Positions 20,741 to 52,199 of a stretch of DNA of 64,000 nucleotides are shown here, piece after piece. The stretch's first letter is position 1. Each line of letters begins with the position of its first letter. A model generated the notes under the pieces. It was given only the letters and a program-made list of their open reading frames with translations, had not been told where the DNA came from and did no database searches. A program made the translations under genes and the position numbers. The DNA comes from Spirochaetia bacterium (lineage in GTDB: Bacteria; Spirochaetota; Spirochaetia; UBA9216). The stretch lies in the NCBI GenBank assembly GCA_963675665.1, contig OY776510.1, forward strand, positions 4,160,001 through 4,224,000. Reading direction: 5' to 3'.

Positions 20741-20828
20741 CCCGCACGAAGGCGGACTCAGAATTAATGCAGTGGAGTTTGCCCGGCAAACTCCACAATA
20801 AAAAATTGCATGGATGCAATTTTTTATT
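20741..20828 (-). repeat. Triple-hairpin intercistronic module A
   Basis: On the + strand: CCGC-acgaag-GCGG; GTGGAGTTTGCC-c-GGCAAACTCCAC; AATAAAAAATTGCA-tgga-TGCAATTTTTTATT. Confidence 0.85.
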
Positions 20829-21984
20829 ACGCTTTCCAGCCCCGGTAGGTTGCGCCTGCAATTATCAGTTTCTGTATTTCTGTGGTGCCTCCCGACGAAA
20901 TGCTGGCAAGTGCGTCCCTGTGGAATCTTTCAACCGGGTATTCGGTCATTACACCGTAGCCGCCCATAAGCTCAATAGCATTCTGCGAAGCTTTTACTGC
21001 GTTATCTACACAAAAGCATTTTGCAAGGGCGAATTCTGTAATTGCATTGATTCCTTTATCCTTTAAAGAGGCCGCCCGGTAGGTAAGTAGTCTTCCCGCT
21101 TCATACCAGGTTCGCATCTCCGCAATATGAAACTGGATCGCCTGTAGTTTGCTTATCGGTTTTCCGTATAATATTCTCTCGTTTGAAAACTTGACGGATT
21201 CTTCAAGACATCCCCTCATCAAACCCAACGCTATCGCGGACATTGAAGCGCGTCCGATTTCTCCAATCTGCTTCATTCCCAGCGGACCGCCGGCCCCTTC
21301 ATCTCCAATCAGTCTGTCAGAACCGATCTTTACCTCATCCATTATTACATCGCCTGTCCATGAACCGCGAAGCCCCATTTTATGCTCTTTTCTTCCCGGA
21401 CCGAAACCTTCATCTCCTTTCTCAAAAAGAAAGGTGGATATAAGATTTCTTCCGCGATCGTCCTGGCCGGTCACTGCCGTACAGACTGTGATATCTGCGG
21501 CTCCGGCATTTGTGATGAAGCACTTTCGTCCATTTACAATCCAGCCGTCGCCGTCTTTTACTGCGGTTGTTTTCTGACCGGCATAATCCGATCCGCCGCC
21601 CGGTTCAGTAACTGCAAGACCGCATATCTTTGAGCCGTCGCAGAGTGAGGGCAGATATTTCTTCTTCTGCTCTTCGCTGGCGCCGTCCAGAATTGCTCCC
21701 ATGCAAAGATGGTGGGTAAACACCGCTATGGCAAGTCCGCCGCTGTAACGGGCAATTTCTTCGATTACCATAACGCGTTCGATATGGCCGAGTCCTGCTC
21801 CGCCGTATTCTTCCGGAACAAAGATTCCCATCATTCCTATCTCGCCCATTTTGGGCCAGAGCTCCGCCGGAAAATAATCCTCGGAGTCCCACCTGGCTGC
21901 TTCCGGGGCAATCTCGGCCTCGATAAATTCCCTGAATGCGTTTCTAAGCATTTCCTGATCTTCGGTAAAAGTAAAATCAATCAT
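20827..21984 (-). CDS. Acyl-CoA dehydrogenase
   Basis: ATG 21984 with an AGGAG RBS. GLAVTEPGGGSD, NGRKCFITN, KMGLRGS, GGYG...EYPVER..RD, GGTTEIQK. Confidence 0.95.
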   Translation of the reverse strand: MIDFTFTEDQEMLRNAFREFIEAEIAPEAARWDSEDYFPAELWPKMGEIGMMGIFVPEEYGGAGLGHIERVMVIEEIARYSGGLAIAVFTHHLCMGAILDGASEEQKKKYLPSLCDGSKICGLAVTEPGGGSDYAGQKTTAVKDGDGWIVNGRKCFITNAGAADITVCTAVTGQDDRGRNLISTFLFEKGDEGFGPGRKEHKMGLRGSWTGDVIMDEVKIGSDRLIGDEGAGGPLGMKQIGEIGRASMSAIALGLMRGCLEESVKFSNERILYGKPISKLQAIQFHIAEMRTWYEAGRLLTYRAASLKDKGINAITEFALAKCFCVDNAVKASQNAIELMGGYGVMTEYPVERFHRDALASISSGGTTEIQKLIIAGATYRGWKA

Positions 21985-22004
21985 CCTTTCATCTCCTACT
22001 GTTT

Positions 22005-22784
22005 TCAAGCTTTAAAATCAGCCGCCCTTTTTTCCAGAAAAGCGGTCATGCCTTCTTTCTGCTCATCAGTTGCAAACGTAAGAGCAAAAAGTTCAATTTC
22101 ATTATTCAATGCCGATTTCTGATCGGCTTCCATACCGTTATTAATAGCTTTTTTGGCAAGTTTAACAGCAAAAGGCCCTTTTTTATAGATTGTTTCAAGC
22201 ACCTTGCGGCATTCGCTGATCAGCTCGGAAGCCGGGACAACCTTTTCGACCAGCCCTATGCGCAGGGCTTCAGCGGCGTCTATCATTTCAGCAGTCATGA
22301 TAAGGTATTTTGCCATACCCTTTCCGACAAGCCTCGGCAGCCGCTGGGTCCCGCCGAAACCCGGAATTATTCCCAGGTTAACTTCGGGCTGGCCCAATCT
22401 TGCAGTCTCGGACGCTATCCTGATATCACAGGCCATTGCAAGTTCACATCCGCCGCCCAAAGCAAAACCGTTAACGGCCGCGATAACCGGTTTGGAGCAT
22501 TCTTCTATTGCGTTCATAACCGAATGGGCGGCCGCCGACATACTGCGGCTTTCAAGCGCGGAGTAGTCTCTCATCTGGGCTATATCGGCCCCGGCCACAA
22601 AGGCTTTTTTGCCCTCTCCCGTTACAATAACTCCGCGTACTTCGTCGTCGGCCTCGATTGCATCAAAGATTTGTTTAAGCTCGCTGATCACGTCAAGGTT
22701 AAGGGCGTTAAGCGCTTCAGGCCGGTTTATCGTTACATAAGCCGTTGATTCGGCGACTTCATATTTGACATTACTCAGTTTCAT
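22005..22784 (-). CDS. Enoyl-CoA hydratase (crotonase family)
   Basis: INRPEALNAL, AFVAGADI, GFALGGGCELAMACD, GQPEVNLGIIPGFGGTQRL. Confidence 0.95.
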   Translation of the reverse strand: MKLSNVKYEVAESTAYVTINRPEALNALNLDVISELKQIFDAIEADDEVRGVIVTGEGKKAFVAGADIAQMRDYSALESRSMSAAAHSVMNAIEECSKPVIAAVNGFALGGGCELAMACDIRIASETARLGQPEVNLGIIPGFGGTQRLPRLVGKGMAKYLIMTAEMIDAAEALRIGLVEKVVPASELISECRKVLETIYKKGPFAVKLAKKAINNGMEADQKSALNNEIELFALTFATDEQKEGMTAFLEKRAADFKA

Positions 22785-22802
22785 ACGTTTTTTAAACCTC
22801 CG

Positions 22803-24479
22803 TTAAAAATGAATTGCTTTCCCGCGGACAGCCTCACAGGCTTCCATCAATGCTTCTGAAAGCGTAGGATGTGCATGAACAGCGGCGGCAAGCTCTTCCG
22901 AAGTAGATTCAAGGTGAACGGCTGCCCCGGCTTCAGCAATAAGATCTGAAGCATGTGCTCCGATAATATGCACGCCGAGGATCTCATCCCAGCGTTCATC
23001 AACTATGACCTTCACGAACCCTCCGGCTTCGCCTCCGGCAAGCGCTTTTCCGATAGCCTTGAACGGAAACTTGCCGACTTTAACGGGAAGCCCCTTTTCT
23101 TCTGCTTCGGCTTCAGTCATGCCGACCCAGGCGATTTCAGGTTTTGTAAATATGCATGAAGGAACAGCATTATAGTTTATCTTCTCAGTTTTTCCGTTGA
23201 ACAGATGTTCCGCCACCTGTAGCCCCTGCTTGCTCGCAACATGTGCAAGCTGGCATATGCCTGTTATATCGCCGATAGCATAAATATTTTCGGCGGAGGT
23301 CCCCAGAGTATCATCCGTTTCTATAAAGCCTTTCGAATCAAGTTTTACAACTGCTTCGGGACTCAACCCGTCGAGCACCGGCTGTCGTCCGACGGCGATT
23401 AGAACCGCGCCGGCGGCGATCTCCGAACCGTCTGCAAGCACAGCCCTGCCGTCCTTCACTGCCCTGAACCCCGTTGAAGTTCGTATATCTACGCCTGATT
23501 TAACCAGTTCCGCCCTCAGCAGCTCCGAAACCTCGGCGTCGGCCGCCGCAATGATACTGTCGAGCATTTCCACAATTGTAACCTTCACCCCGAATGATGA
23601 ATATATCGAGGCCATCTCCACACCGATTACACCTCCGCCGACTATCACGATTGATTCCGGAAGCTTCTTTTCGGCAAGCAGTTCCGCCGAATTATAGATC
23701 CTGACGCTGCCGTCGTTATCAAAGGGTATTTCAAGCGGTTTTGTACCGGTAGCCAGCACGATGTTTTCGGCTTTCCAGGTTTTGCCGGCAGCCGTTATTA
23801 TTCCGTCTGCGCCTGCCGAAGCCTCCGCCCTGACTATTTCAACATTGTTCTTCTTAAGAAGGCCCTCCACACCGCTGACAAGCGTATTAACAACCCGGTC
23901 TTTCCGTTCAAGGATCTTTTCCCAGTCGAACGACGGGTCCGACAGGCTGATTCCCATGGGGCCGGCATTCAGCACTTCCTGCCAGGCTTCGGCATTTCGG
24001 ACAAGGGCCTTTGTCGGAATGCAGCCGCGGTTAAGGCACACGCCTCCGAGCGAATCCTTCTCGAACAGAACAACCCTGGCGCCGAGCCGGGCCGCCCTTA
24101 TTGCGCAGACGTAGCCTCCGGGGCCCCCGCCGATTACTGCAAGGTCGTAAGAAGCTGACGCTTCTTCAACAGCTTCAACCCGTTCCTGCTTTGCCTCATC
24201 AACAGGACTCTTTTTTCCTACCGTAGGAGGAACCTCGCCGGGCTCTCCGATATACATAATAGGCTCGTTAACCTTTACAGTATCGCCGGCAGCGGCATAT
24301 AACTCGAGAACAGTACCGTCCGCGGCGGGGTTATCAACTTCAAGGCTGAGTTTCCCCGTTTCTATTTCTACTACGATATCTCCGCGCTGTATTTTATCGC
24401 CCTTTTTTACCAGCCAGTCGACTATTATTCCCTCTTCCATCGACATGTCCAGTTTGGGCATTGTCATAAATTTTCCCAT
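22803..24479 (-). CDS. lpdA: Dihydrolipoyl dehydrogenase (E3) with an N-terminal lipoyl domain
   Basis: ATG 24479 with RBS. Lipoyl domain MPKL...EEG.IV.W...GD...VEIETGK, GGGPGG, redox-active CLNRGC, HAHPTLSE. Confidence 0.95.
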   Translation of the reverse strand: MGKFMTMPKLDMSMEEGIIVDWLVKKGDKIQRGDIVVEIETGKLSLEVDNPAADGTVLELYAAAGDTVKVNEPIMYIGEPGEVPPTVGKKSPVDEAKQERVEAVEEASASYDLAVIGGGPGGYVCAIRAARLGARVVLFEKDSLGGVCLNRGCIPTKALVRNAEAWQEVLNAGPMGISLSDPSFDWEKILERKDRVVNTLVSGVEGLLKKNNVEIVRAEASAGADGIITAAGKTWKAENIVLATGTKPLEIPFDNDGSVRIYNSAELLAEKKLPESIVIVGGGVIGVEMASIYSSFGVKVTIVEMLDSIIAAADAEVSELLRAELVKSGVDIRTSTGFRAVKDGRAVLADGSEIAAGAVLIAVGRQPVLDGLSPEAVVKLDSKGFIETDDTLGTSAENIYAIGDITGICQLAHVASKQGLQVAEHLFNGKTEKINYNAVPSCIFTKPEIAWVGMTEAEAEEKGLPVKVGKFPFKAIGKALAGGEAGGFVKVIVDERWDEILGVHIIGAHASDLIAEAGAAVHLESTSEELAAAVHAHPTLSEALMEACEAVRGKAIHF

Positions 24480-24496
24480 TATATCTCCTCTTTCAG

Positions 24497-24581
24497 CCCG
24501 CACGGAGGCGGGTATTCGGGGCGCAGTTTGAAGAAGTCTTCAAACTGCAGATTCAAATTGAACACGAAGTTCAATTTGAAT
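24497..24581 (-). repeat. Triple-hairpin intercistronic module B
   Basis: On the + strand: CCCGC-acggag-GCGGG; GCAGTTTGAAGA-ag-TCTTCAAACTGC; ATTCAAATTGAAC-acgaa-GTTCAATTTGAAT. Confidence 0.85.
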
Positions 24582-24599
24582 AAATCTCCTGCCGCCAGT

Positions 24600-25589
24600 T
24601 TATAGATCGACCAATACGCACATCGGATTTGCAAGCAGATCTTCCAGCGTCTTCAGAAACCTGGCGCCTTCTATACCGTCTATAATCCGGTGATCCAGCG
24701 TCAGACTGAAACCGGTCACGGTTCTGACAACAATCTCGTCGTCAACAACAACGGGCTTTTTTGAAGTCCTGGAAATACCAAGAATCCCGCCTTCGGGCGA
24801 ATTGATAATCGGTGTTGAAAAATCAACAGGATAATTCCCAAGATTGCTGATGCTGAAGGTCGAACCCGTGTATTCGTCCGGAGTTAGCCTGTTTTCACGG
24901 GCCCTGGTTACAAGCTGCCGGCTGATTTTATTAATGTCCGAAAGCGACAGTTTTTCCGCATTCTTAACGACAGGAACTATAAGCCCTTCATCTAGCGCAA
25001 CAGCTATTCCGATGTTAACTGAGGTGTACCGCCTGATTTGTCCATCAACAAGGGCTGAATTAATCTTCGGGTTCTGCATCAGCGCAACAGCCGTTATTTT
25101 CACCAGGACATCGGTAAAAGTCAGTTTTGCGTCGGCGAACCGGCTGAATGCAGTCTTTGCCTCTGCAAGAAATCTGAACACTTCGGAAGTATCAAGCTCG
25201 GCGCACATGGTATACTGCGGCTGGGTTTTCATACTGTTAAGCATATTTTCGGCTATGACGTTTCTCATGCCGGACATGGGTATTTCAGTGTAACCGGGAC
25301 CTCCCCGGCCTGCGGCAGCTGAGTCGTTGCCGGTTATACCTTCAGTTCCTGCAAGTACATCAGCTTTTCTTATCTTCCCGTCTGCAGGGCTTAATGTTGA
25401 AGTGTCAATTCCATAATAATCAGCCATCTTTGCCGCAACTGCAGTAATTTTAACGCTTTTATGCTTAAAGGCAAGTACATCGCGGGTCAGCACAGCGCCG
25501 TAATCCCCTGTGCCCCGGACCTTTGACAAATCAATATTCTGCTCGGCTGCAAGTCTTCTGGCTGCCGGAACGGCCGGTATATTTTTCAT
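24600..25589 (-). CDS. Dihydrolipoamide acyltransferase (E2) lacking a lipoyl domain, with two subunit-binding domains
   Basis: Starts directly with PAARRLAAEQNIDLSKVRGTG, a second copy TAVAAKMADYYGID...GKIRKADV follows, and the catalytic DHRIIDG is present. Confidence 0.92.
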   Translation of the reverse strand: MKNIPAVPAARRLAAEQNIDLSKVRGTGDYGAVLTRDVLAFKHKSVKITAVAAKMADYYGIDTSTLSPADGKIRKADVLAGTEGITGNDSAAAGRGGPGYTEIPMSGMRNVIAENMLNSMKTQPQYTMCAELDTSEVFRFLAEAKTAFSRFADAKLTFTDVLVKITAVALMQNPKINSALVDGQIRRYTSVNIGIAVALDEGLIVPVVKNAEKLSLSDINKISRQLVTRARENRLTPDEYTGSTFSISNLGNYPVDFSTPIINSPEGGILGISRTSKKPVVVDDEIVVRTVTGFSLTLDHRIIDGIEGARFLKTLEDLLANPMCVLVDL

Positions 25590-25601
25590 GCCTGTCCTCC
25601 G

Positions 25602-26582
25602 TTATCTTTTTACCAGTTTCCTGACAGTTCCGACGACATCGTCGACTACAGGAACTATCTGCTTCTCGAGATCAGGGTTATAGGGGACCGGCATTTCCTT
25701 TCCTCCGAGCCTTTCCACCGGAGCGTCAAGATAATAAAAAGCCTCGCTTTCCATTATTGAAGAAACAACCTCGCCGGCAAAGCCCCCGAATTTGGGCGCT
25801 TCGTGAACAATTACCGCCCGGCTTGTTTTTTTGACTGAATTTATAATTGTTTCGGTATCAAGCGGTTTAAGTGATCGCAGATCGACAACCTCGGCGTTAA
25901 TACCCTCTTCAGCCAGTTGTTCGGCAGCCTCCAGGCAAACGGGCAGCATTCTTGAATAGGAGATTATGCTGATATCAGTCCCTTCGCGTTTTATGTCAGC
26001 CTTCCCTATTTCAATTGTATATTCAGCCTCAGGGACCTCGCCTTTTGTCCTGTACAGAAGCTTGTTTTCAAAAAACAGGACAGGGCCGTTATCCCTGATA
26101 GCTGATTTCAGCAGGCCCTTCGCATCATACGGAGTTGCAGGATATATTATTTTTAAACCGGGAGTATTCGTATACATCGATTCGAGACTCTGGGAATGCT
26201 GCGCAGCAGCGCCTGTTCCGGAACCGAAAGGTGCCCTGAAAACCAGCGGCACCTGCACCTGGCCGCCGGTCATAAACCTGTATTTGGCTGCATGGTTGAT
26301 AAGGCCGTCCGAAACAAGGGTTGAAAAGTCACCGAACATTATCTCAACAATTGGCCGCATCCCTACCATTGATGCCCCCATTGCCAGGTCCATAAAACCT
26401 TCTTCCGAAATCGGGGTTTCAAGCATCTGATCAGTACCGAATTCATCAAGCATCCCGCGTGAAACACCGAAACATCCCCCGTATACGCCAATATCTTCAC
26501 CGACGAGAACAACATTACGATCCGCTCTCATCTCTTCGCTCATAGCATCTTTAACTGCCTGTAAAAAAGTTATCTCTGCCAT
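25602..26582 (-). CDS. 2-oxoacid/acetoin dehydrogenase E1 beta subunit
   Basis: GEDIGVYGG, ETPISE, EIMFGDF, AQHSQS, VVDLRSLKPLD. Confidence 0.95.
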   Translation of the reverse strand: MAEITFLQAVKDAMSEEMRADRNVVLVGEDIGVYGGCFGVSRGMLDEFGTDQMLETPISEEGFMDLAMGASMVGMRPIVEIMFGDFSTLVSDGLINHAAKYRFMTGGQVQVPLVFRAPFGSGTGAAAQHSQSLESMYTNTPGLKIIYPATPYDAKGLLKSAIRDNGPVLFFENKLLYRTKGEVPEAEYTIEIGKADIKREGTDISIISYSRMLPVCLEAAEQLAEEGINAEVVDLRSLKPLDTETIINSVKKTSRAVIVHEAPKFGGFAGEVVSSIMESEAFYYLDAPVERLGGKEMPVPYNPDLEKQIVPVVDDVVGTVRKLVKR

Positions 26583-27563
26583 CTAAATATCCCCCTGACT
26601 GCTGTAAACATAACCAAGCGCTTCTTCAAGGCTGATCCTTTCCTTGCCCCTGCATTTTTCGGTTGCGGCTTCTATTTCAGCCTCAACATCAGTCTTCATC
26701 TTCTCAAAAGATTTCTCGGTAATATAACCGCGTTCCAGCAGCTTTGCCCTGAACATGGCTATGGGACATCTTTCCTTCCATTCGGCTTCTTCTTCCTTGG
26801 TGCGGTACTCACGTCTGTCGGACTTCGAATGTCCCAGCCACCTGTAGGTCTTGACCTCAAGAAGGAAGGGTTTCGGGTTCTTCCGCATATTATCCGCAAG
26901 CTCCTTTACGGTGCTGTAAACAAGTTCTACATCGTTTCCGTCGATTACCCGGTTTTCAATGTTATAGGCTGTTCCGCGAACTGCAATGTCTTCAACCGAA
27001 ACAGCATACCTGGCCGGCACCGACATCCCGTAAAGGTTGTTTTCACATATATACAGAACAGGCACGTCCCATATTGAAGCCATATTAAGCGCTTCATGAA
27101 AAGCTCCCCGGTTGCTCGCTGCATCTCCGAACATCGTGCAGACGATATTTTTGGAACCCGATCTTTTCAGTTGAAGGGCCATTCCGGTCGCCATCGGGAT
27201 TGCTGATCCGACAATTCCTGAACTTCCCATGTTTTTATAACGCGTATCGATAATATGCATCGAACCGCCCATTCCTTTGCATACGCCTTCCCTGATTGCC
27301 ATCAGTTCCGCCATTATATCGTACGGAGTGGAGCCTTTTGCTATGCAGTGCCCGTGCCCCCGGTGGTTAGGAAGAATCCAGTCGTCCCTGTCAAGCGCCG
27401 GGCTTACACCCGCATGAAGGGCTTCCTGTCCTATTCCGAGGTGTGTCGTTCCGTGTATCAGTCCCTGCATAAACATTTCGTTTACCTTCTCTTCGAAACG
27501 GCGCGACGTGAGCATCAGCCGCATGGTTTCAAGAGACTGTTTTTTTCCGAATTCAAATGCCAT
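26583..27563 (-). CDS. TPP-dependent 2-oxoacid/acetoin dehydrogenase E1 alpha subunit
   Basis: GTTHLGIGQEA, NHRGHGH, GGSMH, TPP motif GDAASNRG...ENN, TYRWLGHS. Confidence 0.95.
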   Translation of the reverse strand: MAFEFGKKQSLETMRLMLTSRRFEEKVNEMFMQGLIHGTTHLGIGQEALHAGVSPALDRDDWILPNHRGHGHCIAKGSTPYDIMAELMAIREGVCKGMGGSMHIIDTRYKNMGSSGIVGSAIPMATGMALQLKRSGSKNIVCTMFGDAASNRGAFHEALNMASIWDVPVLYICENNLYGMSVPARYAVSVEDIAVRGTAYNIENRVIDGNDVELVYSTVKELADNMRKNPKPFLLEVKTYRWLGHSKSDRREYRTKEEEAEWKERCPIAMFRAKLLERGYITEKSFEKMKTDVEAEIEAATEKCRGKERISLEEALGYVYSSQGDI

Positions 27564-27688
27564 TTATTGCCTCCCTGGACATAATTTTTATATCAGCGCC
27601 GTTTATAAAACCGGCGTCCGTCAGGCAGGGTTTCTTCAACCTCTGTCATAGTGTTACATTTGCTCACTTGTATTACTTATGTAACTTT

Positions 27689-27717
27689 ATAATATTACAA
27701 ATCGGGTGAATTCGCAA
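27689..27717 (-). promoter_or_regulatory. Candidate sigma70 promoter of the dehydrogenase operon
   Basis: TTGCGA-N17-TATTAT, followed by four 9-bp imperfect repeats. Confidence 0.45.
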
Positions 27718-27803
27718 GGGTAAAAACATGTTTTAAGAAAAATAATGAATAAAAATTACTGCAAGATGTATTAGACTTTGAAGAACAACAACGGAGGGTT
27801 TCA

Positions 27804-28301
27804 ATGACCATATCAGTCAGTGCGGGCAGTTTCCTGTATATCATGATGGCGGTTATAATTGGCGTAATTATTTTATCGATGCTTCTGAAAAAGGGAGACC
27901 GAAATAAAAAAATCATAACAGTAGTAATAGTTCTTGCAGTATTTATTTTTATTTACATATTGTTCGGCAGACCTGCCAAAATATTAATTGATGAACAGGG
28001 AATTAATTCCACTGCGTACGGGAAAATTGAATTCAACTGGAGCGATGTTAAAAGCGCGGAATATATAAGTAACTATCAAAACAGCCCGTACAAACCTTCA
28101 CTTAAATTGAACGGAACAGCCTTAAAATATTTTCGCGTAGGAAAATTTCGACTTGCAAACGGAGATAATGTTAAACTTGTTACCCAGAAATCCGACGATG
28201 CTTTGATATTTTACACTTCAGACGGAATCTATCTTTTTGCTATTGATCAGCTTAAAGAGATGATTGACATTGCAGATAACTACATTGAGGTGGTATACTG
28301 A
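27804..28301 (+). CDS. Two-TM membrane protein with a bacterial PH-like domain
   Basis: Two N-terminal TM helices, then I.WSDVKS...LKLNGTAL..FRVGKFRL.NG. Confidence 0.65.
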   Translation: MTISVSAGSFLYIMMAVIIGVIILSMLLKKGDRNKKIITVVIVLAVFIFIYILFGRPAKILIDEQGINSTAYGKIEFNWSDVKSAEYISNYQNSPYKPSLKLNGTALKYFRVGKFRLANGDNVKLVTQKSDDALIFYTSDGIYLFAIDQLKEMIDIADNYIEVVY

Positions 28302-44454: not shown

Positions 44455-45714
44455 ATGGAAAACAGCTGGTCCAAACTCGACAACGCAGGAAAGATTTATC
44501 CTGCTAACGTCAATTCACGAAACACCACTCTTTTCAGAATTTACGCTGAACTAAAGCAGGATGTTGACCCTGCTGTTCTGCAGAAATCCCTGGATGAAAT
44601 AATTATTCGTTTTCCTTATTTTCAGGTAAAGCTTAAAAAGGGGTTTTTCTGGTATTATTTCATTCGTACCGACGAAAGAGTCATTATAAAGGAAGATTTA
44701 TATTATCCATGCACAGAATGGAATTTCAAAAAATCCGGTTTCATGTTTCTGGTAAAATACGGCAAAAGAAAAATTGCCGTCGAGTTTTCTCACAGCATAA
44801 CCGACGGAAACGGAGCATTGGAGTTTTTTAAATCCCTGCTGCTTCGCTATCACCAATTGCAGGGCATCAAAGTTACCGACACAGGCGGAATAAAAATCCC
44901 GGGAGAAGATATTAAGCCGGATGAAACTTCCGACGGGTTTAAAGAATTTTATGATGTACATATACCGGCAAGAGAACACAGAAACATAAACGCATTTAAA
45001 CTTAATGATAAACTTTCGGATATGGGTGTCTATCATGTAACAACCGGGACACTTGATTTCAACAGTATTAAATCCGTTGCCCGTGAAAAAAATATTAACC
45101 TTACAGGCCTGCTCTGTCTTTTTTATTTTCAGGTTTTTCAGCAGTTAATCTTCGAACGCAAGGCCAGGCCCGCCCCTCTTGTCATTAATCTGCCGATTAA
45201 CCTCCGAAATATTTTCGGCAGCGGAACAATGTTTAACTTTTTTGTTTCTATTACCCCAACCATAGACCCCCGGATAGGTTTCTTTTCCGAAGAAGATATC
45301 ATAAAGCATGTTAATAATTATTTGAGCCTTGAAATTGATCGCCGGTATGTCGGGAAAATGATTAAGCGGAATATCAACCTGGAGCAACGACTTTATGTCC
45401 GGATTATACCGCTTTTTCTGAAAGAACTTCTGTTGCCGTTTATCTACAGGGTTTGGGGAGAGCGCGGATACACCAGCGGATTATCCAATCTCGGTAAAAT
45501 TGAATTCCCCTCCGAAATAGAAGACAATATTGAGTGCATCAATATTATTCCGCCGCCCAGCCCCGGCAATCTGATAAAGATGATTTGCTTCAGCTTCAAG
45601 GGCCAATTTTATATTACGTTCGGCTCGCTAACGGAAAAAAAGACTGTTGAAAAAAAGTTTTTTCGGCTGCTGCGAAAAAACGGAATTTCTGTTAAAATTA
45701 AAACTGTAAGTTAA
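44455..45714 (+). CDS. CoA-dependent acyltransferase (alcohol acetyltransferase/condensation-domain-like)
   Basis: W.KLDNAGKIYP, RFPYF.V.LKKGFFWYY, catalytic HSITDG, PINLR..F.S.TMFNF, SNLG. Confidence 0.82.
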   Translation: MENSWSKLDNAGKIYPANVNSRNTTLFRIYAELKQDVDPAVLQKSLDEIIIRFPYFQVKLKKGFFWYYFIRTDERVIIKEDLYYPCTEWNFKKSGFMFLVKYGKRKIAVEFSHSITDGNGALEFFKSLLLRYHQLQGIKVTDTGGIKIPGEDIKPDETSDGFKEFYDVHIPAREHRNINAFKLNDKLSDMGVYHVTTGTLDFNSIKSVAREKNINLTGLLCLFYFQVFQQLIFERKARPAPLVINLPINLRNIFGSGTMFNFFVSITPTIDPRIGFFSEEDIIKHVNNYLSLEIDRRYVGKMIKRNINLEQRLYVRIIPLFLKELLLPFIYRVWGERGYTSGLSNLGKIEFPSEIEDNIECINIIPPPSPGNLIKMICFSFKGQFYITFGSLTEKKTVEKKFFRLLRKNGISVKIKTVS

Positions 45715-45718
45715 GGGG

Positions 45719-46453
45719 TTGCTGATGCCATATTGTCCCAAATGCGGAATTGAAGTCGATTACGGCATTTTGAAATGCCCTCTTTGTTCGTTCGATATCC
45801 CGGAAGTTCCGCCGAAACAGGAAATTCTCAGTAACGAAGTTGAACTTAAAAATTATTACAGCGAATTAAAAATGCTAAAAAGCAAACGCCGCAAATTTAA
45901 TAAAAAAATAGTCTTTATCCTGATTCTGCTGATTACTGCCGGAGCGGTTTTCAATAACGCCATGCAGGATTTATTTGTAAACGGTGAATTAACGTTTTCA
46001 TTTTATATATTAAGCTCCTTTGCTTTATTCATCGTTTGCATGATAAGCCTTTTCGGTCTTATCAAGGGATGGAAAAACAACCTGATTATTCTTTTTATCA
46101 GTACAGCGTTATTTATATTGACAATCGACTTGTGGTCGGGCGGAATTGACTGGTACTGGAATATCGGCCTGCCTATAGTAATACTCAGTTACGGACTACT
46201 GTTTCTAAGTGTATTGCTTCTGCGAAAGCTGAAACCGGGCAAACTTTACGGATTGAGCATTATTCTGTTTATATCGTCCATTTTTCTTATTTTACTTGAA
46301 GTAATTCTTGATTCATATTTCGGAGCAATAAATCTTAGATGGTCTATACAGGCCTTAATACCCAACGGCTCTTTTGCACTTCTCTGTATTGCGGGAAGAC
46401 AACTTGTGAATCACGATTTTTTCAAAAAACTGAAACGTTATCTTCATTTTTAA
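45719..46453 (+). CDS. Zinc-ribbon membrane protein (DUF6320-like)
   Basis: YCPKCG...CPLC, about 6 TM helices, ends KLKRYLHF. ATG at 45725 is an alternative start. Confidence 0.75.
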   Translation: MLMPYCPKCGIEVDYGILKCPLCSFDIPEVPPKQEILSNEVELKNYYSELKMLKSKRRKFNKKIVFILILLITAGAVFNNAMQDLFVNGELTFSFYILSSFALFIVCMISLFGLIKGWKNNLIILFISTALFILTIDLWSGGIDWYWNIGLPIVILSYGLLFLSVLLLRKLKPGKLYGLSIILFISSIFLILLEVILDSYFGAINLRWSIQALIPNGSFALLCIAGRQLVNHDFFKKLKRYLHF

Positions 46454-46719
46454 AACGGATAGAGTACCCTGTCTTCAGAACAACGATGAAGAGCCTGTTC
46501 ATAAGTCATGAAAACTATGTTACGAAATTCTTTTTCATAAACCCCGTAGATTTCCAAATCACTTACATAATAAATTTCATTGTATATTTTATTCATTACC
46601 GGTCTTATCCTTACCAGACGGCATAACGCACCTTCGCGGTATGAGTATAGAAGCAGTGAAATGAGAACCGGACTGAGAAAAAGTAGGAATTCACCGAAGC
46701 TATAATCGTTCTTTCTCAT
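46450..46719 (-). CDS. Small hypothetical membrane protein
   Basis: ~89-aa ORF with one TM helix, convergent with the upstream gene. Confidence 0.45.
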   Translation of the reverse strand: MRKNDYSFGEFLLFLSPVLISLLLYSYREGALCRLVRIRPVMNKIYNEIYYVSDLEIYGVYEKEFRNIVFMTYEQALHRCSEDRVLYPF

Positions 46720-46752
46720 TGGCAATATTATATCATAATTTTAATAATCTAA

Positions 46753-46788
46753 GGTAAATCTCTAAAAACTGCAGTTTTTAGAGATTCC
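46753..46788. mobile_element. 36-bp palindromic mini-element, copy 2 (CTAA direct repeats)
   Basis: ctaa-GGTAAATCTCTAAAAACTGCAGTTTTTAGAGATTCC-ctaa. Confidence 0.7.
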
Positions 46789-46817
46789 CTAATATTAAAA
46801 ACTTCGGAATCAGGAAT

Positions 46818-47834
46818 TCACCCGCTCTTTCTTATGCCTGTAGATTGCCGCTCAATAAAAGTTGAACCTATTAAAAGACTTGCCGGCTTTTCGTCCGGAT
46901 TATTCAGTCGCCGGTCAAGCAAGACTACCGCCTCCGCTCCCATGGTGACTACAGGATTATGGATTGTGGATAATCCCGGAACTGCATCACGAGCGGGGCC
47001 GAGATCATCAAATCCTACAAGGCTTACATGCTCCGGAATATTAAGGCCTGTTTCTTCACAATACTCAATTACTCCCAATGCACAGCGATCCGAGCCTGTC
47101 ATAATTGCAGTCGGCCCCTTGCCGGATCTTAACAGATTTTCAGCCCCTTCAAAGCCGCTTCTCCTGGAAAAATTCCCTTCTGTAACGACAGTACTTATTC
47201 CGTGTTCTTCAGCCAGACAGTTAAACACTTCAAGGCGCTTCATTCCGTCCCAGTAGTTTCCATCCCCGGTGATATAACCTATGGAATTATGGCCAAGCGC
47301 CTTAAGATGAATCAGGGCTTCAAGCGTTCCGTCATATGGATCACAGTTTATACAGTCTGAATCCTTGTAATAATTATTTATCATTACGAAGGGAATATTC
47401 TGACGAACCAGCGACGGAAACCGCTCATCATCAAGTGGGGCGACAGCAAAAATTAATCCGTCAACCTCTCTGCTGTAAATTAATTCGCCAAGTTCCTTGA
47501 ATTTATCGTTTTTCCTGTCCAGAACAATGGTGATTGAATACCCCAATTCTTCCGCCTTTTGAAGAACTCCGTCAAGAAGCCTGTGAAAATAGCTTCGCGA
47601 AAAAGGCGGAAATGATTTATAGGTTTTTACAACAAGACCAATTCGCATTGTTCTGTTGCTGGCAAGAAGCACTGCCTGTCGATTCGGAATATAACCGAGT
47701 CTGGCGGCAACTTCTTTAACCCGCAGCTTGACCGTATCGGTAATCAGGGTTGAATCATTCAGGGCTCTTGAAACAGTAGATTCGGCAACTCCCGCTTCTT
47801 TAGCCACTTCCGCACGGCTTACCTTTTTCCTCAT
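46818..47834 (-). CDS. LacI-family transcriptional regulator
   Basis: AEVAKEAGVAESTVSRALN, LGYIPN, IPEHVSLVGFDD, IERQST. Confidence 0.95.
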   Translation of the reverse strand: MRKKVSRAEVAKEAGVAESTVSRALNDSTLITDTVKLRVKEVAARLGYIPNRQAVLLASNRTMRIGLVVKTYKSFPPFSRSYFHRLLDGVLQKAEELGYSITIVLDRKNDKFKELGELIYSREVDGLIFAVAPLDDERFPSLVRQNIPFVMINNYYKDSDCINCDPYDGTLEALIHLKALGHNSIGYITGDGNYWDGMKRLEVFNCLAEEHGISTVVTEGNFSRRSGFEGAENLLRSGKGPTAIMTGSDRCALGVIEYCEETGLNIPEHVSLVGFDDLGPARDAVPGLSTIHNPVVTMGAEAVVLLDRRLNNPDEKPASLLIGSTFIERQSTGIRKSG

Positions 47835-47908
47835 AATAAACTCATTATCAGAAAAATCCAGGAAATTTTCAATCTTTTATAAAAGACAATACATGCTCGG
47901 ATCAGCCG

Positions 47909-48898
47909 TCAATTCTCCATGGCTCCGTCAAAATCCACGGAAGAAGGGGCAAAATTTATCCTGCGTACAAATTCAAGCGATTCTGCAGCACCGAATTCAC
48001 GATCCATTCCGTTATCTTCCCATTCTACGGATAACGGCCCTGTATAGCCTGCATCATTCAATTCGCGAATTATTGCATCAAAATCGACCTGCCCGTGTCC
48101 TATCGACCTGAAATTCCATCCTCTCCTTCCGTCGCCGAACTGCAGATGTGATCCCAGAATGCCGCTTCTGCCGTCCAGGGTTACCGAAGCATCTTTCATA
48201 TGCACATGGTAAACCTTGTCCGCGAAATCCCTGAGAAACAGATGCGGACTTATTCCCTGCCAGATAAGATGACTTGGATCGAAGTTTAACCCAAGCGTTG
48301 CCCTGTTTTCAAAAACCTCAAAAAGCTTAACAGTGGACCAGTAATCATAGGCAATTTCAGACGGGTGCACTTCAAGGGCGAATTTAACGCCTGCCTTATC
48401 GAATTCATCAAAAATCGGAGTCCAAAGTTCCTTTATCTCCTGATAACCGTCTTCAACCATCTGCTCAGTTGTCTGTGGAAAGGAATACAGGTATTTCCAT
48501 ATCGGCGAACCCATAAAACCGGTTACAACCTCACAACCCATGGCGGCGGCAGCCCGGGCCGTATAAATCATTTCCTCTATTCCCCACTTCCTGATTTCAT
48601 CAGGCTTGCCCTGATATTTTGCAGGCGCAAAACCGTCAAGACGCGGATCATTATAATCACCTACACACTGCCCCGACAAATGGGCGCCCAATGCAAAGCA
48701 ACTTAAATTATTTTTTTTCAGAATCTCTTTTTTATCATTTGAATATGATATATCGGTTGCAGCCTTTCTGACATTCATATGATCACCCCAGGCAGCAATC
48801 TCAAGCCCGTCGTACCCGATTTTACTGATAAGAACACATAGCTCGCTGAAAGGTATATCGGCCCACTGTCCTGTAAAAATCGTAACCAATCTTCCCAT
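47909..48898 (-). CDS. Sugar phosphate isomerase/epimerase (xylose-isomerase-like TIM barrel)
   Basis: FTGQWAD, GYDGLEIA, FALEVHP, NFDPSH, YHVHMKD, GPLSVEWED. Confidence 0.9.
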   Translation of the reverse strand: MGRLVTIFTGQWADIPFSELCVLISKIGYDGLEIAAWGDHMNVRKAATDISYSNDKKEILKKNNLSCFALGAHLSGQCVGDYNDPRLDGFAPAKYQGKPDEIRKWGIEEMIYTARAAAAMGCEVVTGFMGSPIWKYLYSFPQTTEQMVEDGYQEIKELWTPIFDEFDKAGVKFALEVHPSEIAYDYWSTVKLFEVFENRATLGLNFDPSHLIWQGISPHLFLRDFADKVYHVHMKDASVTLDGRSGILGSHLQFGDGRRGWNFRSIGHGQVDFDAIIRELNDAGYTGPLSVEWEDNGMDREFGAAESLEFVRRINFAPSSVDFDGAMEN

Positions 48899-48927
48899 TA
48901 TAATCTCCTCAGGTAATTTAATATCAT

Positions 48928-48951
48928 TTTAATGCACACGCGTGCATTAAA
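48928..48951. promoter_or_regulatory. LacI-type operator palindrome
   Basis: TTTAATGCAC-aCGc-GTGCATTAAA with central CG, immediately downstream of the -10 box. Confidence 0.75.
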
Positions 48952-48979
48952 TATTAACACACACCACCTGATAGCACAA
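48951..48979 (-). promoter_or_regulatory. Sigma70 promoter of the isomerase-LacI unit
   Basis: TTGTGC-N17-TAATAT. Confidence 0.55.
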
Positions 48980-49014
48980 GAAATAATATTTTAGGATTTA
49001 TTTTCTGAAGATCA

Positions 49015-50913
49015 ATCGAGTAGGCAGAAATCAATAAATTTCTGCCTCTCACACCACCGTACGTACCGTTCGGTATACGGCGGTTCAACCAAATAGACTG
49101 TGGTACCTCAAATCAAGTACCACCCGATCAGCCTCCATGCGTTTCGTATGGAGTTTCTTGTAGAAATCCAGAGCATCTAACAACCCAAAGTGATTATGAA
49201 TTATATCGTTCTTCAACAGAGGATTCATAACACCGGCCATTTTCCAATAAGAGTTGCTTCCAAGTTTCCAATGGCTCAGAACAGAATCACTAACGCCTAA
49301 TTGTCTCAAACGATGTTTTCTATTCCTTCCGGTTTTCCACTGTTTCCAAAGATATTGGCGAATGCGTCTTCTTGTCCACTCCACCAACCTTTCGAGGTAG
49401 TTTTTCATGGAGCTTCTTGCGAAGTATCCTATCCATCCTCTGAACATGCTGTTAAGCTCTTTAATAACCGTTTCAATCTTTACTCCTCTGTTACGTCGGG
49501 TAATTAGTCTGATACGGTCTTCGAGCTTCTTAAGTTTCTTCTTTTGAGGATAGACTATTCCTAATATTTCCTGTTTCCCGTAGGTCAAGAAGGTGAATCC
49601 GAGGAAGGAAGAGCCCGCGGCTTTTCGCGCCTCTGTCTTTTCCATATTCACTTTAAGTTTTAATTTTCGCTCAAGATAGCTTTTCACACTATCTCTCACC
49701 CGGTAAGAAGACCTCTTGCTCTTTGTGAAGATGTTACAGTCATCTGCGTACCTGACAAAACGTAATCCCCGCTTTTCCAATTCCTTGTCATACGGGGTTA
49801 GATAAATATTTGACAGTAGTGGAGACAGCGGTCCCCCCTGAGGTGTTCCCAAGGCTGTGGCCATCATACTTCCATCCGTCATCACTCCGCTTTTTAAGAA
49901 TACGTAGATGAGCCTCCTGATGTCCTTATCGTCCATGTGTTTGTCTATCAAACTCATTAGGATGTCATGGTTTACAGTGTCGAAGAACTTGGATAAATCC
50001 AAATCAACTACATGGGTGTATCCTTCGGACATGTAGGTCTGGGCGAGTCGAACCGCATCTTCTGCGCTTCTGTTCGGTCGAAACCCAAAACTAAAGTCGC
50101 TGAAAGTCGGTTCAAACACCGGAGTTAAAACCTGAACCATAGCCTGTTGGATTACACGGTCTATTACCGTGGGGATCCCCAGAAGTCGTACGCCCCCGTT
50201 GTCTTTTGGTATTTCTACTCGCAGTACTGGTTTTGGTTTGTACTTCCTGCTCAAAATCTGCCTGCATATTTCAGGATAGTTCGCCTCGAAGTATTTCGGG
50301 AGTTCTTCTACTCCCATTCCATCCACTCCACAGGCACCTTTATTTGCCATCACCTTTCTGACAGCTTCCTGAATATTTGCAGGGGAAATCAGTTGTTCGC
50401 ATAGATTGGTATTCGGTATTAACTTGTCGTCCTTTCTCATGTGTTCCTTTCTACTCTGAATTATCCCCTGTGAAGACTTTTTTTTTCGTCGTTCGGATTA
50501 TCAGGTAGGCCTTTCCGCTTTGAAAGGTATTTGATTGTTCAGCCCTTCATGATGTTTCCTCATCACTACTATGGCTTCTGCTGACTTCTCATGGCAAGCT
50601 TTACTCCGTCTATAATAAGCGATATTGCAGCCTAAGACGTCCATGAGACCTCCCCCGTTAAGGATAATGACTTTCCTTCCATGTAACCGCCACATTTACT
50701 TCATCAGTTGTAGTGCGGATTTCGTCACTTTTAGCAAACTCGTCCACTGATAAAGCCTTATATGTGATTTCTGTTCGTCGGTTCGGAAATTTGCCTCATG
50801 CTTCCTTCAGACCCAGCCTCACGACTACGCCCTTGCTGTCAGCTAACAGTTTCTTTAACACTACCACCTGTAACGGACTCTCACCGTCAAGTCATTACCC
50901 ATGCAGGGCAAAC
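49015..50913 (-). mobile_element. Group II intron, class IIC (~1.9 kb)
   Basis: 5' end GTTTGCCCTGCATGGG directly after a terminator stem-loop. GAGAAGTCAGCAGAAGCCATAGTAG...GAAGGGCTGAAC (DII/DIII region), short DV ACCGCCGTATACCGAACGGTACGTACGGTGGT with a CGC triad, DVI with a bulged A, and 3' end CTCGAT. Confidence 0.93.
49085..50440 (-). CDS. ltrA: Group II intron reverse transcriptase/maturase, no endonuclease domain
   Basis: NKGACGVDG, IPK.NGG.R.LGIPTV.DR.IQ, DLDLSKFFD, GTPQGGPLSPLLSNIYL, RYADD, X domain RGWIGYF. Confidence 0.96.
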   Translation of the reverse strand: MRKDDKLIPNTNLCEQLISPANIQEAVRKVMANKGACGVDGMGVEELPKYFEANYPEICRQILSRKYKPKPVLRVEIPKDNGGVRLLGIPTVIDRVIQQAMVQVLTPVFEPTFSDFSFGFRPNRSAEDAVRLAQTYMSEGYTHVVDLDLSKFFDTVNHDILMSLIDKHMDDKDIRRLIYVFLKSGVMTDGSMMATALGTPQGGPLSPLLSNIYLTPYDKELEKRGLRFVRYADDCNIFTKSKRSSYRVRDSVKSYLERKLKLKVNMEKTEARKAAGSSFLGFTFLTYGKQEILGIVYPQKKKLKKLEDRIRLITRRNRGVKIETVIKELNSMFRGWIGYFARSSMKNYLERLVEWTRRRIRQYLWKQWKTGRNRKHRLRQLGVSDSVLSHWKLGSNSYWKMAGVMNPLLKNDIIHNHFGLLDALDFYKKLHTKRMEADRVVLDLRYHSLFG

Positions 50914-50914
50914 T

Positions 50915-50942
50915 AAAAAAACCGGGGTGTCCCCCGGTTTTT
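50915..50942 (-). terminator. Terminator of the tRNA gene, which is also the intron target stem-loop
   Basis: AAAAACCGGGG-gaca-CCCCGGTTTTTTT, then A and the intron 5' end. Confidence 0.9.
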
Positions 50943-50957
50943 AAACTGTAAATACTC

Positions 50958-51031
50958 TGGGCGACATTGGATTCGAACCAACGACCCCTTGCGTGTCGAG
51001 CAAGTGCTCTAACCAACTGAGCTAGCCGCCC
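50958..51031 (-). tRNA. tRNA-Val(GAC), CCA not encoded
   Basis: GGGCGGC/GTCGCCC acceptor stem, TAGCTCAGTTGGTTAGAGC D arm, CTTGC-TCGACAC-GCAAG anticodon arm, GGTTCGAATCC T arm. Confidence 0.95.
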
Positions 51032-51046
51032 CCTGACAGTAAGATT

Positions 51047-51074
51047 ATTATACAAAGTGTAGCAACTCTGTCAA
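51047..51074 (-). promoter_or_regulatory. Consensus sigma70 promoter of tRNA-Val
   Basis: TTGACA-N16-TATAAT. Confidence 0.85.
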
Positions 51075-51099
51075 CATAATTCCGAATTTAAATCAGAAT

Positions 51100-51137
51100 A
51101 AAAAACCGCTGCTCATGGCAATACACAGCAGCGGTTT
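51100..51137 (-). terminator. Terminator of the che operon
   Basis: AAACCGCTGCT...AGCAGCGGTTT followed by a T run on the minus strand. Confidence 0.8.
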
Positions 51138-51162
51138 CATTTTTATACAATTCTTTAAGAAT

Positions 51163-51597
51163 CTATTTTATAGTCATAAGTATGCGCTCAAGGACTTTCG
51201 CCCTATCAAGCGGTTTTACAATATAATTCTTCGCGCCTATCAAAAGCGATTTCTTCACAAGGTCCTGCTTGCCGAGAGCGCTTATCATTATTACCTTGGC
51301 ATCCTTGTCGAATTCAATAATTTTTTCAAGCGCGGTAACACCGTCCATCTTGGGCATGGTTATATCCATTGTAACAAGATCTACGTTCGGATACTGCTCC
51401 TTATACATTTCGAAACCTTCCTGGCCGTCAGATGCTGTGCCCAGCACATCAAATCCTTCAGACGTCAAAATCTGGCTGATTTGTTTTGTAACAAACATGG
51501 AATCATCAACAACCAGAACCCTGTATTTGGATCCGTCCGGTTTCTGCCCTTCAGGCTTCCTTTCATTTATATTTGGAAAATCCTGTTTATTCTTCAT
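51163..51597 (-). CDS. cheY: Chemotaxis response regulator CheY
   Basis: VLVVDDS, DLVTMDITMPKMDG, ISA, YIVKP; follows cheX. Confidence 0.93.
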   Translation of the reverse strand: MKNKQDFPNINERKPEGQKPDGSKYRVLVVDDSMFVTKQISQILTSEGFDVLGTASDGQEGFEMYKEQYPNVDLVTMDITMPKMDGVTALEKIIEFDKDAKVIMISALGKQDLVKKSLLIGAKNYIVKPLDRAKVLERILMTIK

Positions 51598-51610
51598 TTA
51601 ATATCTCCTG

Positions 51611-52072
51611 TTACCTTTCTCTGACCGCTACATTTATTTCCATCTTTCCCTCACTGAGTTCAATCGGAACAATCAGGGCCTCAACACCTGTATCAGATAC
51701 TTCCATATTCTCACCCGTAAAAATTGCCGGCGGGGTTAAATCAAAAGTAAAGCCCAGTTCATGCAGTTTGGTGACGGCCTGCGCCGTTATCATGTTAGCC
51801 AGTTCTGTAATTGTAGCTTTGGCAAGATCGTCGAACGAACTGAGTTCTTCACCGTTCATTTTTCCAGCAATTCCCAGCGCCGTTTTCTCATTCATATCAA
51901 ACAGCACCCGGCCTTCAACATCTCCTGCAAGCCCGACAATAGCAGCAACGCCCAATACAGGCTGGGATGTTGATTTCAGATACAATTCACCTCTCTTTAT
52001 ATCAGAATCGACAACTTCTTTCATAATATTAAATGCTGCTTCAACAAATGGATTAATATACTCTACTCTCAT
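51611..52072 (-). CDS. cheX: CheY-P phosphatase CheX
   Basis: MRVEYINPF, VGLAGDVEGRVL, catalytic ELANMI, LTPP. Confidence 0.95.
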   Translation of the reverse strand: MRVEYINPFVEAAFNIMKEVVDSDIKRGELYLKSTSQPVLGVAAIVGLAGDVEGRVLFDMNEKTALGIAGKMNGEELSSFDDLAKATITELANMITAQAVTKLHELGFTFDLTPPAIFTGENMEVSDTGVEALIVPIELSEGKMEINVAVRER

Positions 52073-52091
52073 CTAACACTCCTATAAAATT

Positions 52092-52199
52092 CCTGCCACT
52101 GAGGGCAGGTTTGTGACGTGAAGTTTACTAACTTCGTTAGTAAACTTCAAAATGATAAAATAGCAAAAGGTGCTTGCACCTTAGGCTATCTTTATCATT
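52092..52199 (-). repeat. Triple-hairpin intercistronic module C
   Basis: On the + strand: CCTGCC-actgag-GGCAGG; TGAAGTTTACTAAC-ttc-GTTAGTAAACTTCA; imperfect AATGATAAAATAGC..AAGGTGC-tt-GCACCTT..GCTATCTTTATCATT. Confidence 0.85.

Follow-up and report, generated by a model that had tools for sequence, protein, structure and literature searches.

A triple-hairpin cassette in operon spacers

We analysed a window of 64 kb (the whole stretch of 64,000 nucleotides, positions 4,160,001 to 4,224,000 of contig OY776510.1) from the genome of a Spirochaetia bacterium, in which three spacers between minus-strand genes carry a module of the same build. Read in the sense of the genes, each of the three consists of a long AT-rich hairpin (HP1), an adjoining second hairpin (HP2), a linker and a short GC hairpin (HP3) with a hexaloop closed by a C-G pair, followed by the Shine-Dalgarno sequence (SD) of the next gene. 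A preliminary description made from the letters alone had placed a triple hairpin in each of these spacers, and both the sequence and an inverted-repeat scan (perfect repeats, stem of at least 10 bp, loop of at most 8 nt) bear this out. According to Pfam the flanking gene pairs encode an acyl-CoA dehydrogenase and an electron transfer flavoprotein (ETF) subunit, an E2 acyltransferase and dihydrolipoamide dehydrogenase (lpdA), and a CheW-CheR fusion and CheX; the three host operons are functionally unrelated. The gene upstream of cheX had been taken for cheW; it does encode a CheW domain, but as part of the fusion. The features are listed below in window positions, all read on the minus strand; bit scores are those of two covariance models, R1 and TD-2, that are introduced further down.

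20740–20830, minus strand: module 1 cassette, between the acyl-CoA dehydrogenase gene (stop codon 20827–20829) and the ETF gene (ATG 20722–20720); from the sequence, R1 (59.6 bits), TD-2 (44.1 bits) and Pfam
20797–20828, minus strand: module 1 HP1, an AT-rich perfect palindrome of 15 bp with a 2-nt centre and apex CATCCATG, overlapping the upstream stop codon (inverted-repeat scan)
20772–20796, minus strand: module 1 HP2, a 12-bp palindrome of the GGAGTTTG...CAAACTCC variant (inverted-repeat scan)
20741–20756, minus strand: module 1 HP3, a short GC hairpin whose hexaloop is CTTCGT; after it come a T-rich stretch and the SD (GGAG, 20726–20729)
24496–24583, minus strand: module 2, a divergent cassette between the E2 acyltransferase gene (stop codon 24600–24602) and the dihydrolipoamide dehydrogenase gene (ATG 24479–24477); R1 (52.4 bits) and Pfam
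24586–24590, minus strand: left AGGAG core of module 2, left of the cassette; the empty site of congener G003 has a single ACAGGAG, and congener G004 has AGGAG at each unit boundary
24551–24581, minus strand: module 2 HP1, 13 bp with loop TTCGT (inverted-repeat scan)
24523–24548, minus strand: module 2 HP2, 12 bp, GCAGTTTGAAG variant (inverted-repeat scan)
24497–24512, minus strand: module 2 HP3, CCCGC/GCGGG with hexaloop CTCCGT; the right-hand SD, GAGGAG, is at 24485–24490
52092–52200, minus strand: module 3 cassette, between the CheW-CheR fusion gene (stop codon 52210–52212) and cheX (ATG 52072–52070); R1 (63.8 bits) and Pfam
52201–52208, minus strand: left copy of TATAGGAG at module 3, the original SD position, present as a single copy in empty orthologous sites
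52151–52199, minus strand: module 3 HP1, imperfect, with a conserved AATGATAAA arm and a nested extra hairpin at the apex
52119–52149, minus strand: module 3 HP2, 14 bp, TGAAGTTTA...TAAACTTCA
52092–52109, minus strand: module 3 HP3, CCTGCC/GGCAGG with hexaloop CTCAGT
52079–52086, minus strand: right copy of TATAGGAG at module 3, the SD now serving cheX

The word ACTTCGT, described as recurring at two hairpin apices, lies on opposite strands in the two and therefore carries no meaning. No U tract was said to follow the hairpins; this is correct for module 2, but in the family consensus TTTTTAT separates HP3 from the SD, and HP3 of modules 1 and 3 is flagged by a loose pattern scan for intrinsic terminators, a T run beginning there 2–4 nt past the stem. 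The HP3 stems measure 5–6 bp and all three modules are intra-operonic.

The host genome (G000), a single contig of 5,150,563 bp that contains the window, holds 507 perfect inverted repeats in the same scan. Stems of at least 12 bp were found in 247 of them, compared to about 3 by chance as estimated by hand from length and loop range. Adjacent inverted repeats form 51 clusters, and one layout is common to most. With a hidden Markov model (HMM) built from 26 seed copies we obtained 97 matches in the genome. The covariance model R1, built from 38 copies of the host genome and restricted to the hairpins with the SD flank left out, gave 92 matches at E≤0.01 out of 150 scored candidates, corresponding to 88 distinct copies and including the three window modules. 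The structure-defined family supposed in the preliminary description is genuine: the three spacers are members of a dispersed family of ~88 copies in a 5.15-Mb genome.

The cassette is ~90–130 bp long and comprises three palindromes. Its consensus from 60 copies reads AGGAG core, HP1, HP2, a linker of ~10 nt, HP3, TTTTTAT, a second AGGAG, 5–8 nt and ATG. HP1 has a conserved outer arm (AATGATAAAA), four to five variable pairs and a C[NTCCRT]G apex; HP2 has eight conserved outer base pairs (GAAGTTTG/CAAACTTC) and a variable interior with nested mini-hairpins at times; HP3 has the stem CYGCC/GGCRG and the same hexaloop as HP1. The 3' end of the cassette supplies TTTTTATAGGAG, i.e. the T-rich stretch together with AGGAG. 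The stems had been considered unrelated in sequence, which holds for their inner parts, but conservation across the family is seen in the outermost 8 bp of HP2 and in the HP1 outer arm.

Four tandem arrays of 5, 3, 2 and 2 units were found (G000:C1 1652310–1652920, 2973034–2973395, 836211–836482 and 4576505–4576781, respectively). Each unit has one AGGAG, and units are 92–100% alike within an array; the five-unit array near 1.652 Mb consists of 112-bp units. A subfamily with two to three nested mini-hairpins of the AAACTGCAACGCAGTTT type in the HP2 apex is represented at G000:C1 738801–738945, 894809–894937, 1454627–1454755 and 4930041–4930167; its copies are 81–92% alike, and two of the four adjoin an insertion sequence (IS) present in 15 copies. 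At G000:C1 4030094–4036782 pairs of short hairpins, one HP2-like (GAAGTTT...AAACTTC) and one AT-rich, lie beside apparent tRNA gene ends and may be truncated relatives of the cassette. Two other ideas on the nature of the cassette were rejected. A conserved mini-ORF starting from the ATG after the left AGGAG was discarded since frame and stop differ between copies as stem lengths differ, the ATG being only 1–2 nt from the core. Integron attC sites were dropped, by argument and with no formal test, on the grounds that the copies are dispersed in conserved operons and not located in a cassette array.

Position at ribosome-binding sites and site polymorphism

For each R1 match we asked whether an SD and a start codon opening an open reading frame (ORF) of at least 60 amino acids follow within 60 nt downstream. 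In the sense orientation this was the case for 67 of the 88 copies of the host genome, in the reverse orientation for none (0/88). The 21 misses comprise eight inner units of tandem arrays, six copies followed by an insertion sequence and seven others. Five other species of the genus gave 27 of 30 copies in sense and 0 of 30 in reverse. Orientation relative to the genes, for which the preliminary description had proposed a check, is therefore fully non-random. With ORFs mapped crudely, 76 of the 97 HMM matches have an upstream ORF in the same orientation, so that most copies are intercistronic. With regard to replication direction there is no strand bias: 49 of 88 copies have leading-strand orientation compared to 65% of the ORFs.

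All three sites of the window are polymorphic between species of the genus, both in presence and in copy number; an invariant presence in relatives, which had been named as a point that would speak against mobility, was not found. Between the CheW-CheR fusion gene and cheX the cassette is present in G000 and its congener G005, with all three stems differing between the two, and absent from the congeners G001–G004 as well as from G008, G009 and G010, three further genomes compared at this site. Here the empty sites consist of the stop codon, one SD of the TATAGGAG type, a spacer and the ATG, and the filled sites have TATAGGAG on both sides of the cassette. At the E2/lpdA site the cassette is missing in G003 and single in G000; G004 has three near-identical units in tandem there, with ACAGGAG bounding each of them. 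Of the sites between the acyl-CoA dehydrogenase and ETF genes, those of G000 and G004 are filled and those of G003 and G005 are empty.

A 14-kb locus of the host genome was additionally compared with contigs from two sequencing runs of a ~96% identical strain. These contigs join across 1523 nt, comprising an insertion sequence and the adjoining cassette, and 9 letters are common to both sides of the joint; two other cassettes of the locus are present in the strain. Since contigs show presence and not direction, gain and loss of the 1523-nt segment are not separable. At L160 9857–11173 (G000:C1 4933857–4935173) a contig of run X5, from another sample, joins across a segment of 1317 nt, which is hence absent there.

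The flanks of the cassettes differ in their conservation. The positions before the left AGGAG carry 0.07–0.63 bit each, those before the right AGGAG 0.62–1.05 bit. A variable left and a conserved right stretch fit a core-centred recombination in which the target supplies the left flank and the element the right one, and are unlike the target-site duplication left by a staggered cut. Nor does the cassette resemble a classical MITE (a miniature transposable element with inverted repeats) derived from a DDE transposon, as its ends share only ~6 nt in inverted order when read from the consensus.

Stem covariation and identity with TD-2 RNA

In 61 distinct copies 95.7% of the stem cells are paired, compared to 72.7% in shuffled alignments, and both sides change in 20 of 21 pairs; sliding the pair partners lowers pairing to 41–48%. 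The pairs comprise 1194 Watson-Crick, 12 G:T, 21 A:C and 33 other combinations. A strand-symmetric mismatch tally, built so as to give wobble no advantage, counted 67 mismatches among 3772 pairs (11 G:T, 23 A:C, 33 other). The host genome contributes 53 mismatches in 2290 pairs (G:T 7, A:C 17, other 29), the congeners 9 in 870 (G:T 3, A:C 2, other 4) and a genome resembling Treponema denticola 5 in 612 (G:T 1, A:C 4, other 0). Wobble thus accounts for at most 1% on either strand and does not exceed in frequency those mismatches that would be intolerable in an RNA. Many of the stem changes are flips from A:T to T:A, for which no wobble intermediate is possible. Near-pure Watson-Crick covariation with such flips is expected if both arms of a DNA hairpin change in concert, through template switching or through correction of the hairpin in its extruded state. 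This suggests that the constraint on the stems acts on DNA palindromes and not on RNA, which is an argument from the pair types and not a proof. Among the origins considered in the preliminary description, template switching is the one that would yield covariation of this kind.

The preliminary description did not recognise a named family. The family does have a name: it is TD-2 (RF03162, clan CL00124), read on the other strand. Of ten copies tested against Rfam at an E-value threshold, eight matched RF03162, on the strand opposite to the flanking genes. Over the whole host genome the TD-2 model gives 18 matches at or above its gathering score of 48.7 bits and 33 at E≤0.01. The window copies are less typical. 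Module 1 scores below the gathering score, modules 2 and 3 have no TD-2 match at E≤10, and an Rfam scan of the window at gathering score returns no match in the three spacers. When copies are aligned to the Rfam model, its consensus structure shows the same order of three hairpins with conserved hexaloops: first a GC hairpin capped by a hexaloop, next one of the form GAGUUU...AAACUC, and last a long AU-rich one that has this hexaloop again.

In Weinberg et al. 2007 (PMC1950547), TD-1 and TD-2 are described in T. denticola only and no function is assigned; some TD-1 instances are said there to overlap the reverse complement of TD-2. Besides that description, no paper mentioning TD-1 or TD-2 appeared in the literature searched. 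The distribution of TD-2 over 151 genomes of the class is patchy and touches two separate families, which speaks for the insertional reading. Carriers are the present genus, one genome out of two of a sister genus, and all four complete genomes (2.7–2.8 Mb) of g38, a genus of another family, where copy numbers are highest. The family is thus newly seen outside the group of T. denticola. The copies described here belong to another family of the class and have their gene-sense strand in reverse of the Rfam model. In contrast to 20 copies from one g38 genome, they are bounded by SDs and adjoin start codons. In this genus the TD-2 form is SD-bounded, locked in orientation and polymorphic in insertion. 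The T. denticola-like genome (G043) contains mosaics such as HP1-HP2-HP3-HP1-HP2-HP3 or HP3-HP1-HP3, several of which follow the 3' ends of paralogous genes with a similar terminal peptide.

A probable IS110-family partner and the proposed origin of the cassette

A search of the host genome for PF01548 gave 23 matches: one element accounts for 15 of them, its copies being identical, and a second type for the other 8. The 15-copy element is ~1.38 kb long and encodes a protein of 371 amino acids with PF01548 and PF02371. Each of the 15 copies lies in sense, directly upstream of a gene: 5–7 nt separate its right end TTTTTATAGGAG from the ATG of an ORF of 93–729 amino acids. IS900-type mycobacterial members would be a precedent, inserting between the ribosome-binding site and the start codon; our literature search gave no text stating so. 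The last 12 nt of the right end (TTTTTATAGGAG) are identical to the 3' consensus of the cassette. At the left junction a variable T-rich stretch and AGGAG come first; the left end behind them agrees with the HP1 arm and apex of one subfamily of cassettes in 22 of 23 nt, as judged by eye, and the final nucleotides before the right AGGAG of the IS match the other HP1 arm. Target and core are shared at both junctions, as seen in empty and filled cassette sites and in the 15 of 15 IS copies at an SD. A full cassette 3' end adjoins 5 of the 15 copies and partial cassettes adjoin two more. In congener G005, which has the most cassettes among the congeners, there is a 106-nt relic of the IS left end (89% identity), and also a relic of the right end that adjoins a cassette. 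An IS of 71% identity in a genome of another family, where TD-2 has no match, has the same ends and lies on the SD before an ATG, which assigns these ends to the IS lineage. A search by regular expression for a solo HP1 flanked by AGGAG, as a minimal derivative of the IS, found none.

The 215-nt left non-coding end of the IS has a stable predicted fold (z = -4.45) and contains two 30-nt repeats, each with a target-like word of the TAGGAGA type. A structured left end with such words is what a bridge RNA would need (PMC11208160), but an assignment of left and right guides by analogy with IS621 gave no convincing placement and we make no claim in this respect. On the IS and its flanks Rfam gave no family at E≤1 and no match to a curated bridge RNA. 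According to PMC11208160 and PMC11187229, IS621 and ISEc11, IS110-family elements with bridge or seek RNA, resemble the 15-copy IS in their combination of PF01548 and PF02371, in a long structured left non-coding end, and in sequence- and orientation-specific insertion with the core repeated at both ends. The 15-copy IS differs from them in that it targets the SD 5–7 nt before a start codon and carries a replacement SD. As described in the literature, mini-IS consisting of the ends only can be moved in trans (PMC11187229), and in Pseudomonas putida MITEPpu9 is a MITE-like partner of the IS110-family element ISPpu9 (PMC12288879). Like the cassette, MITEPpu9 is a short non-coding element flanked by left and right ends similar to those of an IS110-family element and occurs beside the IS as well as alone. 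In contrast to the cassette, it carries a small RNA (sRNA) gene, inserts in repetitive extragenic palindromes (REPs) and has been seen as minicircles, whereas the cassette is known from sequence, targets the SD and lacks the IS in most of its carrier genomes.

The second IS110 element (8 copies, protein of 387 or 346 amino acids; G000:C1 555117, 2047616, 2622580, 2819940, 3726530, 4982880, 5031834 and 4457928) has its insertion point at one fixed place in another composite repeat, which contains long hairpins of the GGAGTTTATTTATT... type; in one three-hairpin cassette, HP1 contains a copy of the element. The only IS110 in G004 is a relative of this second element, and both target the other repeat. 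We set the two aside as unrelated to the present finding. The window further contains a group II intron at 49015–50828 on the minus strand (Rfam matches to D1–D4 and to domain V/VI, with an ORF of 451 amino acids at 49085–50440), located just downstream of a tRNA gene (50958–51031).

We propose that the cassette enters just behind the AGGAG core of a gene's SD, always in one orientation, and that its 3' end, with the T-rich stretch and AGGAG, would rebuild the ribosome-binding site for the downstream gene. Having its own replacement ribosome-binding site, it could sit in functionally unrelated operons without breaking them. The stems would stay perfect through a constraint on, or correction of, DNA hairpins, either by template switching between the arms or by a need to extrude. 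Movement would follow a conservative, core-centred site-specific recombination of the IS110 (bridge-RNA) type, which we infer because the 15-copy IS shares the left end, the right end and the target with the cassette; the cassette was probably moved by an IS110-type bridge recombinase. Once inserted it would be co-transcribed and may incidentally affect mRNA stability or translation, which we do not think is the reason for its presence. The first two links of this chain, an insertional SD cassette and palindromes kept at the DNA level, are much stronger than the mobilisation by IS110. For the chain as a whole, in which an SD-targeting and SD-replacing DNA cassette with DNA-level upkeep of its palindromes was moved, at least historically, by an IS110-type recombinase, we regard the chances as evenly balanced.

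Several observations weigh against this proposal. No PF01548 match was found in G001, G002, G003 and G005, which hold 13–64 cassette matches, and neither an IS110 nor a Y1 transposase in the four complete g38 genomes; G004 carries only the other type of IS110. The link to IS110 is weakened by the fact that most cassette-carrying genomes are without any IS110. Dispersed cassettes of the host genome are mostly 70–80% alike, with only two dispersed pairs above 90%, whereas the 15 IS copies are identical, and two cassettes beside IS copies are only 88% alike. This indicates a recent burst of the IS that landed beside old cassettes with no visible copying of them. The IS has no equivalent of HP2 and HP3, the interior hairpins, and the proposal does not account for the conserved hexaloops. 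Cassette ends vary as well, with diverged ends in many copies: GGAG adjoins the left end in only 40 of 88 copies and the end sequences of module 2 differ. Finally, the g38 copies (20 copies in one genome) have the same hairpins and loops but neither AGGAG nor start-codon flanks, and form mosaics often located after gene ends. Hence the three hairpins as a set predate both the SD-targeted form and the IS and are able to persist without them.

These points favour in part a different history, in which an old trio of the REP type, similar to the bacterial interspersed mosaic elements (BIMEs), was spread or kept by means other than IS110, such as host recombination, replication slippage with template switching or an enzyme acting on hairpins. 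The IS would then merely use the cassette 3' end and ordinary SDs as a target, and the likeness to HP1 would stem from an ancient capture. TD-2 is abundant in the four complete genomes and four congeners without a PF01548 match, cassette copies are old whereas the IS copies are identical, the IS has landed beside diverged cassettes, 10 of the 15 IS copies are located at plain SDs or beside partial copies, and IS110 elements often target repeats including REPs according to PMC11208160. Left unaccounted for are the AGGAG bounds with their variable left and conserved right stretch and the match of the IS ends, kept in a TD-2-free genome of another family, to the cassette ends; an alternative enzyme was not identified, Y1/RAYT being absent. 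We consider this history unlikely, though still worth carrying along. The cassette does share features with the REPs and BIMEs of enterobacteria and pseudomonads (PMC11208160): dispersed extragenic palindromes in mosaics, co-transcription in operons and use as IS110-family landing sites. It differs in its three distinct hairpins in fixed order, the strict start-codon position, the variable inner stems and the lack of a REP-associated tyrosine transposase (RAYT) in its genomes. Movement by a RAYT/Y1 HUH transposase acting on single-stranded hairpins, raised in the preliminary description on account of the palindromic units, would also fit the mosaic arrays and the extragenic location. PF01797 (Y1/RAYT) has no match in G000, G004, G043, G070, G115 and G154, while the same search matches 6 of 14 control genomes, and the cassettes lack the replication-strand bias; this idea is largely refuted and hardly credible. 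The broader notion of a REP-like composite DNA element, offered in the same place, is the best fit in view of the polymorphism at all three sites in the congeners.

The other half of the preliminary description saw in the modules an RNA element for processing, stabilisation or protein binding. As a cis-acting module of the polycistronic mRNA, whether it marks a place for processing, stabilises on the 5' or 3' side, or acts as an insulator by which the next SD stays accessible and the downstream cistron is tuned, the cassette would explain its strict sense orientation, its mostly intercistronic location, the strong covariation, the conserved HP1 and HP3 hexaloops, and the short GC hairpin with a U-rich stretch directly before the SD. 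TD-1 is moreover rated "usually in a 5' regulatory configuration" by Weinberg et al. 2007 (PMC1950547). The non-random orientation is explained equally well by insertion at a strand-specific target, the SD, and therefore does not establish a function of the RNA. A cis-acting role is at odds with the absence of the cassette from the same junctions in congeners that conserve the flanking genes, with zero to three copies at the E2/lpdA junction, with different stems at the same site in two species, with the unrelated functions of the host operons and with g38 copies that are not beside start codons. Wobble pairs, usually the sign of selection on RNA, are not enriched on either strand, an uncommon state where RNA folding maintains a family. 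These data do not establish the RNA model, which we rate as rather improbable. The strand opposite to the genes might instead encode a trans-acting sRNA, given that Rfam types RF03162 as an sRNA gene and that its model matches this strand. Both conserved hexaloops read A-Y-G-G-A-N there and might through their GGA bind a protein such as CsrA, whose sites they may resemble, and A:C mismatches, wobble pairs on this strand, exceed G:T mismatches (23 vs 11). This imbalance is small, with wobble still below 1% of pairs; the copies lie antisense within operons, no promoter-like site was found around module 3, tandem arrays reach five units and the sites are polymorphic between species. A trans-acting sRNA is accordingly a very improbable explanation.

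New in the present analysis are the sense position before start codons, the AGGAG bounds, the site polymorphism, the stems that covary almost only in Watson-Crick pairs, an IS110 with the same termini and target, and the absence of a Y1/RAYT transposase. We tentatively suggest, while holding it for a possible and not yet a favoured view, that the cassette is a natural passenger of an RNA-guided IS110-type recombinase that specialises in invading operons via their SDs and makes good the harm with an SD of its own, the stems being corrected between the arms of DNA hairpins and thus drifting in sequence but not in structure. If so, TD-2, a candidate sRNA since 2007, would be a mobile element at the DNA level and would constitute a second, much larger case of a miniature element that depends on IS110. 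Independently of this suggestion, the present evidence reclassifies TD-2, within this genus at least, as insertional DNA with a precise landing rule. In genome annotation the modules should not be read as regulatory RNAs of their host operons. Two hypotheses result, a bridge recombinase that targets ribosome-binding sites and a DNA-level maintenance of the palindromes. An IS110 that naturally targets the SD together with its spacing to the start codon, and which brings a replacement SD, is of interest for the study and engineering of bridge recombinases.

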